Part shown: in pieces, positions 33,126 to 64,000 of the stretch | Numbering within the stretch: the stretch's first letter is position 1 | How the letters are laid out: each line of letters begins with the position of its first letter | NCBI GenBank assembly: GCA_046760105.1 | Contig: JBHIDJ010000005.1 | Coordinates: 4,557-68,556, forward strand | Length of the DNA: 64,000 bases | Reading direction: 5' to 3' | Origin: Acidiferrobacterales bacterium | Lineage (GTDB): Bacteria; Pseudomonadota; Gammaproteobacteria; Acidiferrobacterales; SPGG2 | Notes under the pieces: model-generated | Told to the model about the DNA's origin: nothing | Databases searched by the model: none | What the model saw: only the letters and a program-made list of their open reading frames with translations | Program-made: the position numbers and the translations under genes

Positions 33126-34802
33126 TTAGGCATTTGCCGTCTCCTCGTCGCGCAAGGTGCGGCGTAAAATCTTGCCCACATTGGTCTTCGCCAGCTCGTC
33201 GCGAAACTCGACGTGCTTGGGCACCTTGTAACCTGCTAAGTTCTTGCGGCAGTGCTCAATAACCCGCTCAGCGGTTAACTCCGAATCTCGCTTCACCACG
33301 AAGAGCTTGACCGCCTCACCCGATCTCGCGTCGGGTACCCCGATCGCGGCAGCCTCTAACACGCCATCGTGGGCGGTGACGACATTCTCTATCTCGTTCG
33401 GATAGACGTTGAAGCCGGACACCAGAATCATGTCCTTTTTCCGATCCTCTATGTAGACATAGCCTTTTTCGTCCATGCGCCCTATGTCGCCCGTGCGCAA
33501 CCAACCATCCTTCGAAATAACCTTGGCTGTCTCCTCCGGACGGTTCCAGTAGCCGCGCATCACTTGTGGGCCGCGCGCGCAGATCTCACCCGATTCCCCA
33601 AGAGCGAGTTCGTTTCCGTCATCGTCCTGAATGCTGACGTCTGTGGAGGATAGTGGCACACCGATAGACCCCGTGTAATCGCTAATACTGAGTGGATTCA
33701 CACAAATGCCTGGTGATGTCTCGGTCAGACCATATGCCTCAATCAGGGGCACACCGGTAACCGCCTTCCACGATCCCGCCACGGAACGCTGTACCGCCAT
33801 ACCGCCACCCAAGGCAATCTTAAGGCGACTGAAGTCAATTTCATCGAAACCCGGTGTGTTTAGCAATGCATTGAAAAGCGTGTTGACGCCCGTGATGACG
33901 GTAAATTTGAATTTCTTGAGTTCCTTGACGAAGCCCGGGAAATCACGCGGGTTTGTTATCAACACGTTGTGGGCACCAACCTTCATATAAGTTAGGCAGT
34001 TCACCGTCAACGAAAAAATATGATAAAGCGGCAAGGCAGTAATCACAATGTCTTCACCTTCGTTCCCGAGCGGGCTCACCCACGCGGAGGCCTGCAGCAG
34101 ATTGGCCACCATGTTTCTATGCGTCAGCACCGCCCCTTTTGCAACGCCAGTCGTACCCCCTGTGTACTGGAGGAAAGCGATGTCATCATGGGTAAGCTTC
34201 ACATCATCCAGCGTTTGTGACTTGCCAGCGCGTAGAGCATTCTTGAAGCTCGTGGTGCCGTGAATATTCCACTTCGGCACCATCTTCTTGATGTGCTTTA
34301 CGACCAGGTTCACCAAGGCAGATTTGGGGAACGGAAACATGTCGCCGATCTGCGTCGAAATCACTGTCTTGACGGGTGTGTTTGCCACCACGTTTTCCAA
34401 TGTCGTCGCAAAATTCTCCAGAATCACGATTGCCTTCGCGCCAGAGTCGTTCAGCTGATGCTCGAGCTCGCGGGCGGTATAGAGGGGATTCACGTTCACA
34501 ACGACCATGCCAGCACGTAGAATGCCAAAGAGCGCCACTGGGTACTGCAGCAGGTTCGGCATCATAATGGCGACCCGATCCCCCTTCTGCAGACCAATAA
34601 CTTTCTGCAAGTACGCGCCGAAGCTCCGACTTTGGTCATCGACGTCGTTATAAGTCAGGGTGATCCCCATGTTCGTGAAGGCCGGGAGGCGTCTATATCT
34701 GGTGCAACTCTGTTCGAAGATGTCTTTGAGCGAACTAAACTGGTCAACGTTGATTTCGGCAGGGACGCGTGCCGGATATTCTTTCAACCAGATCTTTTCC
34801 AC
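33126..34802 (-). CDS. fadD: long-chain-fatty-acid--CoA ligase
   Basis: 558 aa with the AMP-binding signature [24 protein letters not shown]-like AYGLTETSP and GWLRTGDIG. Colinear with FadD. Confidence 0.88.
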
Positions 34803-60370: not shown

Positions 60371-60428
60371 AATCACGGTTCACGACTAACGCTTAACGGT
60401 TCACGGATAACGACTCACGATTAACGCA
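60371..60428. repeat. short direct repeats with about 21-nt spacing
   Basis: ACGGTTCACG(A/G)(C/A)TAACG occurs at ~60375 and ~60396, and TCACGA(C/T)TAACGC at ~60382 and ~60415. They lie between convergent pyrD and the oxidoreductase gene and touch the latter's stop. Confidence 0.55.
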
Positions 60429-61509: not shown

Positions 61510-63429
61510 TCAGGGAGCTAGCACGTAGGAGCGCGACTCCACAAACACCTGCAGCAGATTCGAATCGACTCTGCCCGACTTCGCCTCGGAATGGAGAATG
61601 TCTAATGCCTTCTCCGCTGGCAGGCTTGCCTTATAGGGTCGATCTCGTGCTGTCAATGCATCATAGATATCAGCAATGGTCATGATCTTGGACTGCACGG
61701 GTATTTCGGAACTGGTGAGCCCACGTGGATAACCACTTCCATCGAGCTTCTCGTGATGGGCGTAAGCGATTTCCGGTAGTCGCGAGAGATTTCTCGTCCA
61801 TGGGATAAGACTGAGGAACGCAAAAGTGTGGCTTACATGCGATTCAATCTGTGCCCGTTCTTGAGGATCCAGGCTACCCTTGGATAGGCTAAGATGCGCG
61901 AATTCAAAAGATTGCAACAGCGATAGTTCCTCACCCTGCTCTCCCGGAAAGGTGTACCGTGCCACCGCATCCAAATCGCCAGGTACCATTTTTTGCGACA
62001 CCGTTGGCTCGTTCAGGCGTAGCACGATTTGCAGAAAATCTTCAAGCCGCTTACCTTCGGAAGCTAACATGTCCTCGACCTCGCGACGGCGCGCGGCGAA
62101 TTCCTCCGGACTCAGCTGCTGCTGGTACTGTAAATCGACCAACCGTTGGTAAGCTTCCCGCGCTATACTCGCGCCTGCATATTTGAAACGCTGTTTGACG
62201 ATTTCTAGCTGGTGCGAGTAAAGCTTCTTTGCCTTAACCAGTACATCTTCGCGAACGCCTACCTTTCCAAAGTCATGTAACAGTGCCGCATAGCGCAACT
62301 CAGTCAGCTCGTCACGCGTAAACAGAACATCGCGCAACCCATACAGCTCGGCCCGATCTACCGCCTGTGCAAGGTCTCGGGTAAAGTCTGCAACGCGAAA
62401 CGAATGCCCAGCGGTGGTCGGATCTCGCGCCTCGATCGCTTGCACCGAAGCTCCGATAAAACCCTCGAAGAGCCGCTCGATATCGTTGTAGAGTATGCTG
62501 TTCTCAACTGCTACCCCAGCCTGCCCCGATAGTGCTAGTGCCACGGACCGGCTCAACTCATCGAAAGGCAATACGTGTTGAACAACGTCTTTCGGTGACT
62601 TTAACAAAACGTCGGCGCGGTCCTTGCGGTTGATAAGCTGCAGCACGCCGACGACTTCATCTGCCTTATTCTTTAGCGGCACCGTCAACATCGAACGCGT
62701 ACGGTAACCGATACTGCTATCCACCGCCGGCGAGAAGCGATACGGAGCCGATTCCGGAATCGTGTAGGCATCGTCAACGCCGACCACTTCTCCGGTACGC
62801 GCTACGTAGCCAGCAATGCTGTATTCGCCGACTAGGGTTTTCTGCGCGTTCGACCTCGCCTCGGTCGAAAAATTCTGCCACAGGCGAAAATACAGCTTGC
62901 CACTATTGTCTTTCGTATAGATGGAAGCGCCGTCTGCATTGGTAAGCTCCCGCGCATGCGTAAGGATCAAATCGAGAAGCGTGTCGAGATCCTTCTCGGA
63001 AGCCAGCGCGCGCCCAATCTCGAGCACACGCTCCAACATCTGGGCGGCCTTGGAATCATCATTGCGCTCCAACAGCGCGAGACCGGATCGCAGGGTTGCG
63101 TACATGGTGTCAGTCGAACAAGCCTGATCGAGTACACCGACAACCAAAGGATGATCTAACAACGCACGGTTTAGCGGTGACTGTGAGTCGTCTCGCCAGA
63201 GGACAACTGCGAGCAAACCGGGAGTGACCCGCAATCGCAGCTCTTCGCGGTTAAGAAAGGTGTCGGCCTGTTCGGGTGTCAACACTAGCAACAGGCGCGA
63301 GCCATCAAGCTCGACCGCATCAGCGGCGGTGAGCCGACCGTACTCACTGTTGGCGGAGAGTCGCTGCAAGACCTCGGGCGTTAGCGCCGCCTGATCGGTT
63401 ACCAGCAAGCGCGTTTGGATTTCCGACAT
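61510..63429 (-). CDS. GAF-domain HD-GYP phosphodiesterase (c-di-GMP signalling)
   Basis: 639 aa with a central GAF-like region. The HD-GYP domain has HDFGK and HHEKLDGSGYPRGL. Confidence 0.85.
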   Translation of the reverse strand: MSEIQTRLLVTDQAALTPEVLQRLSANSEYGRLTAADAVELDGSRLLLVLTPEQADTFLNREELRLRVTPGLLAVVLWRDDSQSPLNRALLDHPLVVGVLDQACSTDTMYATLRSGLALLERNDDSKAAQMLERVLEIGRALASEKDLDTLLDLILTHARELTNADGASIYTKDNSGKLYFRLWQNFSTEARSNAQKTLVGEYSIAGYVARTGEVVGVDDAYTIPESAPYRFSPAVDSSIGYRTRSMLTVPLKNKADEVVGVLQLINRKDRADVLLKSPKDVVQHVLPFDELSRSVALALSGQAGVAVENSILYNDIERLFEGFIGASVQAIEARDPTTAGHSFRVADFTRDLAQAVDRAELYGLRDVLFTRDELTELRYAALLHDFGKVGVREDVLVKAKKLYSHQLEIVKQRFKYAGASIAREAYQRLVDLQYQQQLSPEEFAARRREVEDMLASEGKRLEDFLQIVLRLNEPTVSQKMVPGDLDAVARYTFPGEQGEELSLLQSFEFAHLSLSKGSLDPQERAQIESHVSHTFAFLSLIPWTRNLSRLPEIAYAHHEKLDGSGYPRGLTSSEIPVQSKIMTIADIYDALTARDRPYKASLPAEKALDILHSEAKSGRVDSNLLQVFVESRSYVLAP

Positions 63430-63670
63430 CGAACTCGATCATCCCCCGTTGGGGGCGCCAATCCTCCCTTTGGGCGCCAGAGTACCCCTAATTCCACAGT
63501 ACAGGACGGTTTACTCCTTAGCAATAGCTTTAGAATAGACTAAGCGGGAGCTGACAATTTCGCCGGGAGCGAGGAGCGGCACAAGGAGGTGCCGCTTGCG
63601 GAGCGAAGGGCGCAATTGGGACCGCGAAGCGACTCTGAAGGAGCGAGCCACATGAGCGAAGCGGCATAAG

Positions 63671-64000
63671 ATGAAGGTCCAGTGGGTGAGGCGGTAGAAG
63701 GCGAAGGTCCGGTGAACCTTCGCCCCGCCGAACGCCTAAGCCACGGGTGAGCCGGGGCATTGCAAAGGGTCCGGTGGAGCCTTTGCCCGGCGAACGGGCG
63801 GGCCACGGAAGGCCAGCCCCGGACTTGCAAGCGTAGCGGGAATGCGAAGCGCAGCAAGGCTTGGGCCGGTGCCAAAGCGAAGCAGGGGCGAGACGGAGAA
63901 GTGGCGATGATCCAGTGAATCATCGCCCCGTCGAGCGGGTGTGCCATGGGTGAGCCGGACAAAGGCGAGTGTCCAGTGGACGCTCGCCCCGGCAAACGGG
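63671..64000. repeat. tandem array of ~61-62-nt hairpin-containing units, truncated by the window edge
   Basis: Hairpins GGCGA-N4-(t)CCRGTGR-N4'-TCGCC are at 63700-63724, 63903-63927 and 63964-63988, with a variant GCAAAGG..CCTTTGC at 63762-86 and a degenerate copy at 63859-78. Most are followed by CCCG-N5-CGGG, and the complete units at 63700 and 63903 by GCCAYGGGTGAGCCGG (63740-55, 63943-58). The N4 stem tops differ between copies but stay complementary. Confidence 0.75.

Follow-up and report, generated by a model that had tools for sequence, protein, structure and literature searches.

A candidate mosaic of mobile hairpin modules upstream of an HD-GYP gene in an Acidiferrobacterales genome

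The DNA considered here is a 64-kb window (the whole 64,000-nt stretch that was analysed) of contig JBHIDJ010000005.1, from a metagenome-assembled genome (MAG) of an Acidiferrobacterales bacterium, a gammaproteobacterium with 56% G+C. The gene at 61510-63429 on the minus strand encodes a GAF/HD-GYP protein, as judged by Pfam, and the divergent intergenic region upstream of this gene contains an array of ordered hairpins. Here, we describe the organization of this array and the dispersed family to which its principal component, a hairpin that we term unit A, belongs. We conclude, with a probability of about 0.7, that the interval 63574-64000 is a mosaic resembling the bacterial interspersed mosaic elements (BIMEs), that is, a local, non-coding cluster of modules of a mobile hairpin family lying upstream of the HD-GYP gene.

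The hairpin array at the HD-GYP locus

No open reading frame (ORF) with a Pfam match is present between 63430 and 64000, in agreement with an earlier note on this DNA that saw no credible ORF upstream of the HD-GYP gene. A long open frame on the minus strand of the array is made of the repeats themselves, lacks a Pfam match and has a non-coding-like composition; together with a period of 61-62 nt, which cannot be that of a coding repeat, these features rule out a coding origin. The plus strand carries four hairpins, at 63700, 63762, 63903 and 63964, each comprising a 9-bp stem and a 7-nt loop, CCRGTGR, and spaced as first described, by 62 nt (63700 to 63762) and 61 nt (63903 to 63964). These four copies have four different stems, and the differences among them preserve pairing. 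The motif CCRGTG occurs six times on the plus strand between 63679 and 63973, the number originally counted but at coordinates 1-2 nt away from those first given, and is absent from the minus strand of the same region. The window as a whole contains 51 occurrences, with no more than three in any other 330-nt stretch, so the concentration that drew attention to the array is genuine and well beyond chance expectation. The copies in the array are too divergent for Tandem Repeats Finder, which did not report it.

The repeating unit itself had to be redrawn. It had been described as the 9-bp hairpin followed by a mini-hairpin, CCCG-N5-CGGG, and a constant 3' box, GCCAYGGGTGAGCCGG. The true unit is one hairpin of 49-50 nt, with copies at 63685-63733, 63746-63795, 63887-63936 and 63949-63997. 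The supposed 3' box is the linker together with the 5' arm (GGTGAG-GCCGG) of the next unit, and the mini-hairpin is not a feature of the family, since CCGNC pairs with the upstream GNCGG. The search pattern that had been suggested, GGCGA-N4-YCCRGTGR-N4-TCGCC, has one base too many and yields zero matches. Nor is the last unit (63949-63997) cut by the edge of the window; it is complete.

The interval 63670-64000 contains four complete, head-to-tail copies of unit A, with a truncated copy and a pair of hairpins of a second type, unit B, also present in the region; all parts are given here on the plus strand. The mosaic begins with a unit B hairpin at 63574-63597 (GAGCGGCAC-AAGGAG-GTGCCGCTT), whose loop and closing pair, CAAGGAGG, fit the motif CANGGANG; it is the sole CANGGANG hairpin with a stem of at least 5 bp in the window, and is the further hairpin that had been placed at 63577-63598. 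It is followed by a spacer (63598-63669) rich in GCGAAG(C) boxes (63603, 63626 and 63655), and similar boxes are found downstream of unit A in several loci collected from other genomes and numbered with the prefix L (L080, L083, L030, L025 and L143). The truncated copy, A0 (63670-63685), possesses a 5' stem arm and loop only (GATGAAGGT-CCAGTGG) and is fused to the head of unit A1 (49 nt, 63685-63733), which reads, in the order head, bulge, stem arm, loop, return arm and tail, G-GTGAGGCGG / TAGAA / GGCGAAGGT / CCGGTGA / ACCTTCGCC / CCGCCGAAC. A linker, GCCTAAGCCACG (63734-63745), whose GCCACGG resembles a left half-B hairpin interrupted by the next head, leads to unit A2 (50 nt, 63746-63795; G-GTGAGCCGG / GGCATT / GCAAAGGGT / CCGGTGG / AGCCTTTGC / CCGGCGAAC), and this arrangement of linker and flanking units is matched in L051 and L143. 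The second unit B hairpin (GGGCGGGCC-ACGGAA-GGCCAGCCC, in which CACGGAAG fits CANGGANG) occupies 63796-63820. A short hairpin at 63859-63878, the C module (GCTTGGG-CCGGTG-CCAAAGC), bears the A-type loop motif without the outer stem and has a homologue, GCTTGGGCCGGTGCCCAAGC, in L080, L083, L030 and L032. Unit A3 (50 nt, 63887-63936; G-GCGAGACGG / AGAAGT / GGCGATGAT / CCAGTGA / ATCATCGCC / CCGTCGAGC) is separated by a second half-B-like linker, GGGTGTGCCATG (63937-63948, with GCCATGG), from the complete unit A4 (49 nt, 63949-63997; G-GTGAGCCGG / ACAAA / GGCGAGTGT / CCAGTGG / ACGCTCGCC / CCGGCAAAC), which has one T·G wobble on the plus strand. In both linkers GCCACGG or GCCATGG runs directly into GTGAG, and they look like left B halves cut by the following unit A. 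A model of the unit, R1, with A1-A3 but not A4 in its training set, scored A1 at 71.1 bits, A2 at 51.1 bits with filters off, A3 at 59.0 bits and A4 at 45.2 bits, its E-values being rough. The minus strand of the array reached only 8-15 bits, against 45-71 bits for the plus-strand units.

Related genomes lack the array. Seven syntenic contigs (L002-L008) share the gene order pyrD, oxidoreductase, HD-GYP, with HD-GYP proteins 73-76% identical to that of the window, and the gap between the HD-GYP gene and a divergent short-chain dehydrogenase (SDR) gene is only 120-215 nt. Neither a pattern match nor an R1 match to unit A was found in these seven orthologous loci. Thus, the array is an insertion missing from relatives. 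A second (Logan) assembly of the window sequence, retrieved by exact-protein look-up, ends at 63687, inside the array, and L051 and L142 likewise end in similar arrays, so arrays of unit A break assemblies. An exact 40-mer was sought in the JGI metagenomes and not found. Elsewhere in the window, the interval between the convergent pyrD and GFO/IDH/MocA oxidoreductase genes contains tandem copies of a 14-nt sequence, TCACGGTTAACGAC (60373-60426; 3.9 copies, 70% match), which overlap the oxidoreductase stop codon.

Structure and covariation of unit A

Alignment of 99 copies defines unit A as one bulged hairpin of 48-50 nt. A 5' G is followed by GTGAG-GNCGG, a 5' bulge of 4-6 nt, a variable 9-bp stem with the loop CCRGUGR, the return arm, and CCGNC-CGAAC at the 3' end. 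GNCGG pairs with CCGNC, and the N pair covaries (GC in 47 copies, CG in 19 and AU in 9); a variant, GGAGG/CCGAC, creates a second G·A/A·G pair. The foot of the hairpin is a conserved tandem G·A/A·G mismatch closed by the outermost G-C and U-A pairs. The outer pair also covaries (UA 76, CG 14), and unit A3, with C-G where the other window units have T-A, is among the CG cases. The head G(T/C)GAG is thus paired with CGA(A/G)C, leaving unit A without an unpaired GTAG/CGTC tag.

The compensatory changes that had been noticed between local copies extend to the family. Over 15 pairs in 99 units, 94.6% of cells are paired compared with 76% in shuffles, the figure for the 9-bp stem arising partly by selection, as units were retained only if they formed at least eight of the nine stem pairs. 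Cells in which both partners had changed numbered 244, compared with 66 in shuffles, and a control in which the partners were slid gave pairing of 35-51%. Non-Watson-Crick positions of the 9-bp stem are G·T in 31 cases and A·C in 9, an excess which argues that the plus (GTGAG) strand is the strand that folds, as single-stranded DNA or RNA. When the array was folded, the plus strand gave z = -3.8 and the minus strand z = -6.3; both strands fold well, as palindromic DNA must. What is conserved in unit A is therefore its ends (GT...AC), the tandem G·A/A·G mismatch, the GNCGG/CCGNC stem and the loop CCRGUGR, and the sequence of the 9-bp stem is free provided that it is paired. Covariation is a property of the family, a paired stem being needed under a conserved loop, bulge and foot, and is not the conservation of one RNA gene at this locus.

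Two structural analogies were rejected by inspection. The ends GTGAGGC...GCCGAAC match the core sites of integron attC at six of seven bases with the wrong polarity, and a kink-turn would need G·A pairs next to the bulge, which is not where they lie here.

Dispersal of the family and its insertion into genes

A scan of one genome per species from 185,579 species, with a 35-nt degenerate pattern that left the whole 3' arm unspecified, returned at least 119 stretches, of which about 100 among the matches listed are true hairpins. Approximately 102 of the roughly 125 matches listed form at least eight of nine stem pairs even though the pattern did not specify the 3' arm; some 16 of those listed, with five pairs or fewer, lie in coding sequence and fit an estimate of 10-30 chance matches. 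Under this strict pattern several carrier genomes have matches on 3-6 contigs each among those listed, and the genome from which the window comes is not among the loci listed. The matches listed belong mostly to Alpha- and Gammaproteobacteria. Carriers include the Rhodobacterales (Paracoccus, Rhodobacter, Cereibacter, Jannaschia, Defluviimonas and Albidovulum), Hyphomicrobiales and Rhizomicrobium, the Acidiferrobacterales (Sulfuricaulis, Sulfurifustaceae and MAG Maj_1_bin.19), the Nevskiales (Solimonas, Stenotrophobium and Panacagrimonas), and some MAGs whose labels, Nitrospira or Lachnospiraceae, are doubtful and possibly reflect binning error. Mosaics 81-90% identical to the window array occur on contigs of "Nitrospira sp. 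MohnsGC08_bin011" (L018, L030, L051 and L083), which may be mis-binned gammaproteobacterial contigs.

Searches of the collected loci with R1 gave 110 and 25 matches, with 1-3 copies per 8-kb locus, and four of five matches on viral contigs are true hairpins. Stems are often identical within one genome, such as GGAAAAGGT in Paracoccus, and this same stem is also present in gammaproteobacterial MAGs. A BLAST search of plasmids with the unit consensus found just seven records, because the variable stem defeats BLAST. All-against-all clustering of the ORFs of 119 loci revealed no recurrent neighbour gene, only insertion sequence (IS) transposases and unrelated genes. Taken together, these data show a family that is dispersed in many Alpha- and Gammaproteobacteria, polymorphic for insertion, present in either orientation and clustered with other hairpin modules. 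The family appears to be undescribed: sequence-string and keyword searches of the literature, whose incomplete coverage leaves an earlier description possible, found no account of the unit, and the published catalogue of GTAG/CGTC repetitive extragenic palindromes (REPs), in its text and supplements (PMC3733652), includes neither the loop motif nor Rhodobacter or Paracoccus.

Some copies of unit A sit inside IS transposase genes, in both orientations. Six filled sites were compared with uninterrupted homologues, in IS3 OrfA, IS256, IS701 and at three positions in one Cereibacter IS256, where two of the three units are reversed. In every comparison a 48-nt block, GGTGAG...CGAAC, stands opposite 6 nt in the empty copy, or, with a shared G set aside, a 47-nt hairpin opposite 5 nt. 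The short alpha form adds a net 42 nt, the value seen in five cases, and one decayed copy has +43 nt; a fourth, variant insertion in the same Cereibacter IS256 pseudogene adds 39 nt. This pseudogene, with its four unit A insertions, lies at 26489-27863 of L141 (Cereibacter azotoformans plasmid NZ_CP090024), and the variant has an inner hairpin, GTGGCGCC-AGT-GGCGCCGCG, which looks as though the stem had taken in the loop. Three genomes (L102, L009 and L049) have a unit at one and the same IS3 site. The filled and empty copies revealed no target-site duplication and no clear target consensus, the replaced hexamers being GAGGCC (twice), GCCAAC, GACACC and GCGGCG; unit A thus lacks the combination of terminal inverted repeats and target-site duplication that marks miniature inverted-repeat transposable elements.

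The five plus-orientation insertions all share one phase, GGT GAG. Translation passes through units that have the loop CCAGTGG, adding 14 residues, and meets an in-frame stop in those with the loop CCAGTGA, so selection for an open frame fails to explain the shared phase. A match to R1 in the window at 33260-33307 was rejected as chance. The sequence there (GGTGAGGCGGTCAAG, 33260-33340 on the minus strand) codes, by translation, for the GEAVK of an AMP-binding enzyme; the head of unit A mimics a common coding string, a resemblance that may bear on the phase of the insertions. Two other, unrelated 36-nt palindromic in-frame insertions occur in IS3 OrfA, at about 250-470 on the minus strand of L009 and about 300-500 of L129 (Rhodovulum plasmid AP014802), one being GGGCGAGCCTTTGTCCGCCATTGGTCCGAGGACAAT and the other containing GGCATTGCTTCGAGCAATGCC. 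These IS genes may be prone more generally to taking up small hairpins of a length divisible by three.

Unit A also meets the ends of cellular genes. In at least seven cases the TGA within GG-TGA-G is, in the sense orientation, the stop codon of a real gene, namely carB, rpsA (in two genomes), asd, and genes encoding a TctC receptor, an EamA transporter and an MMPL protein. The two copies at the 3' end of rpsA look orthologous, and their hairpin is kept through two compensated pairs (GCCGAAGCT/AGCTTCGGC versus GCAAAAGCT/AGCTTTTGC). The only trend in the orientation of unit A relative to genes is that gene ends lie upstream in 20 cases and downstream in 10, by crude ORF calling that is unreliable in GC-rich loci.

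The company that unit A keeps differs between lineages. In loci of the gamma type, a unit B hairpin lies directly 3' of unit A, with a variable stem and with CANGGANG as its loop and closing pair. This motif is present in 23 of 66 hairpins downstream of unit A, at 4.7 per kb compared with a background of 0.35 per kb, and PMC6849547, citing Schubert 2007, gives it as the Rsm/CsrA binding consensus. Both B hairpins of the window (63574-63597 and 63796-63820) carry it. L051, L080 and L143 repeat the window's succession of A, half-B, A and B, with GCGAAG-rich spacers after it; in L143 there is a GC-rich mosaic of about 540 nt between divergent pepA and lptF genes in an AT-richer genome. L080 also contains a second repeat of about 90 nt (GGGCTTTGATGCCCGCC...CTCCCGGCGAAATTGTCGAGCGA), present twice (600-720 and 1075-1160) in one Acidiferrobacterales intergenic mosaic. 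In Paracoccus the core of unit A is part of a different composite, in which AAATATCCCGGGG is followed by A and then by CCCGGCC...GGCCGGG. A further arrangement is seen upstream of tRNA-Arg(TCG), tRNA-Arg(CCG) and tRNA-Trp genes, where composites of A and B (L127 7233-7596, L072 1-364, L022 7600-7832 and L061 185-410) follow a duplicated stretch made up of the initial 19 nt of the tRNA and 3-7 nt of leader. This creates direct repeats of 22-26 nt that end exactly at the D-loop GG, with the intact tRNA 70-140 nt downstream, and in L127 and L072 the 144-nt unit is tandemly duplicated. These tRNA-linked composites do not fit the replacement of 5-6 nt seen in IS genes.

A probable mobile hairpin family and its rival explanations

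The reading that we favor for 63574-64000, the BIME-like mosaic, would account for these features as follows. Unit A would move as a folded single strand, presumably the GTGAG strand. An enzyme acting in trans would recognize its conserved loop, bulge and foot and ask no more of the stem than that it be paired, from which the covariation of the stem would follow. The array may then have grown by insertion of units beside or into earlier copies and by local duplication. Any effect on the HD-GYP gene, or on the gene beyond position 64000, would be secondary. Of the two interpretations offered in the earlier note, the one that invoked a REP/BIME-like element stands, given the approximately 100 unrelated loci, the absence from relatives, the IS insertions and the mosaic structure, but that of a structured RNA gene specific to the locus does not. 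The note had further held that many copies together with a gene for a REP-associated tyrosine transposase (RAYT) would make the array an ordinary REP/BIME; many copies do exist in other genomes, but no RAYT is linked to unit A in 127 loci and the window.

The element is of a kind already known. The REP/BIME sequences of Enterobacteria and Pseudomonas and the GTAG/CGTC superfamilies (Di Nocera et al. 2013, PMC3733652) are likewise short, GC-rich, bulged imperfect palindromes with subfamilies that differ by complementary stem changes, and occur as singletons, dimers and mixed-motif clusters, mostly just downstream of genes, where they sometimes donate stop codons, and occasionally within ORFs, where they are translated. 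The alternation of palindrome and other motifs that characterizes BIMEs is seen here too, with A, half-B, A, B and C modules in L051, L080 and L143 as well as in the window. Unit A differs in its paired head GTGAG and tail CGAAC, its conserved 7-nt loop, its greater length (48-50 nt), its head-to-tail order in the window and the lack of a RAYT link in the searched loci. Palindrome insertion inside ORFs is also shared with the Rickettsia palindromic elements, as these are cited in PMC3733652. The alpha form of unit A adds exactly 14 codons to IS3, IS256, IS66 and IS701 transposases, its CCAGTGG variant being read through; compared by description only, unit A is much shorter than the Rickettsia elements, gives an in-frame stop in its CCAGTGA variant, and is intergenic in most copies. 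What sets it apart is the particular family, the paired G·A foot, the conserved loop and the constant, duplication-free insertion of +42 nt.

Several observations weigh against a mobile mosaic. No mobilising enzyme was identified among the neighbouring ORFs or by the RayT search of the collected loci. Within the window, copies of unit A are confined to this single locus. The 3' box CRANCG was imposed by the search pattern, and its conservation in the collected set is no independent evidence. The empty IS copies are just 68-85% identical to the filled ones, so that the exact junctions and the loss of 5-6 nt are deduced from diverged sequences. Finally, the compensated rpsA copies and the many housekeeping stop codons fit the possibility that some copies may be functional host RNA.

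A bolder proposal, which we put forward only tentatively and consider less probable than the mosaic itself, is that these units constitute an undescribed, cross-class group of non-autonomous mobile hairpins with an uncharacterised transposition chemistry, in which a folded strand of 47-48 nt replaces about 5-6 target bases, giving +42 nt, in either orientation and without duplication. Recognition would occur through the loop CCRGUGR, the 5' bulge and the G·A/A·G foot, and the mechanism itself would keep the stem paired. Since 42 is a multiple of three, the unit would be translatable inside genes. If this proposal is true, unit A donates stop codons to housekeeping genes, and the gamma form, travelling with a CsrA/Rsm-type GGA hairpin, could spread post-transcriptional control sites through a genome.

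It is unlikely that the units are classical REPs, or the REP doublets called REPINs, mobilised by a RAYT (TnpA-REP, a tyrosine transposase of the IS200/IS605 type) encoded once elsewhere in each genome. Their architecture resembles that of E. coli REPs, in that a GT-rich head is combined with an imperfect, GC-rich and bulged palindrome, units cluster with other motifs, and they often overlap the stop codon at gene 3' ends, habits that have also been reported for GTAG REPs (PMC3733652). They share with REPINs the form of non-autonomous hairpin repeats, with movement presumably taking place in trans on a single strand, and their strand asymmetry suits a single-strand transposase. Against this, a phmmer search with E. 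coli RayT of six-frame ORFs from the 127 loci and the window detected a single RAYT, that of L113, and the repeat flanking it is its own GTAGGGTGGGTGG REPIN, not unit A; because a RAYT acts in trans, its absence near the units is weak evidence. In L113 (7070-7700) the RAYT gene (E = 9e-49 to E. coli RayT) precedes a classical GTAG REPIN, GTAGGGTGGGTGGAACCCACC...GGTGGGTTGGCACCCACCCTAC, and lies 150 nt from an unrelated unit A. The pairing of GTGAG with CGAAC leaves no unpaired tag, and most REPs show the opposite of a conserved loop on a variable stem. In the window, every unit lies head-to-tail on the plus strand without inverted doublets, inverted pairs of unit A being present at few other loci and mostly inside IS elements. 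REPIN-RAYT pairs are usually lineage-specific, whereas a near-identical unit, even with the same stem GGAAAAGGT, is present in both Alpha- and Gammaproteobacteria.

We regard as very doubtful the view that the array or its units are functional RNA, either a multi-hairpin protein sponge of the Csr/Rsm type or domesticated elements of untranslated regions with protein-binding loops (CCRGUGR and CANGGANG). The tolerance of G·U on one strand, the compensated rpsA hairpins, the sense-oriented stops of carB, rpsA, asd and the TctC, EamA and MMPL genes on the TGA of the unit, and the plus-strand fold are all consistent with it. The loops of unit B, moreover, display the CsrA-consensus CANGGANG on variable stems, as do those of CsrB and RsmY/Z/W, and the motif is enriched downstream of unit A. 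A weak similarity to RsmW (16.2 bits against a gathering score of 52) is due to the B hairpin at 63796-63820. This view is opposed by the lack of the array at the orthologous locus, by the two orientations of units within IS genes, and by the minus strand folding better than the plus strand, as expected of palindromic DNA. Rfam gave no match at gathering thresholds anywhere in the window, and relaxing the limit to an E of 10 in the array region brought only sub-threshold chance matches. No promoter-like or terminator-like site was found in the array, and canonical GGA hairpins number only two in 430 nt; unlike the sponges, these are dispersed modules rather than one conserved gene. A purely local tandem duplication that contains a palindrome by chance, with no wider family, would agree with the restriction of units to this one place in the window and has a negligible probability, the genome scan having already ruled it out through some 100 independent copies elsewhere that share loop, bulge and foot, and the local copies having four different stems.

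Annotation of these ordered hairpins should therefore treat them as repeat DNA, and not as an RNA gene or a riboswitch-like leader of the HD-GYP gene. They belong to a family that is widespread in Rhodobacterales, Hyphomicrobiales, Acidiferrobacterales and Nevskiales and that combines three unusual traits: a conserved loop on a free stem, a paired foot with a G·A/A·G mismatch, and a constant net gain of 42 nt without duplication. The companion CANGGANG hairpin suggests a connection of repeat mosaics with Csr/Rsm regulation that can be tested, and the enzyme that moves these units, if found, could define a new way of moving hairpin DNA.

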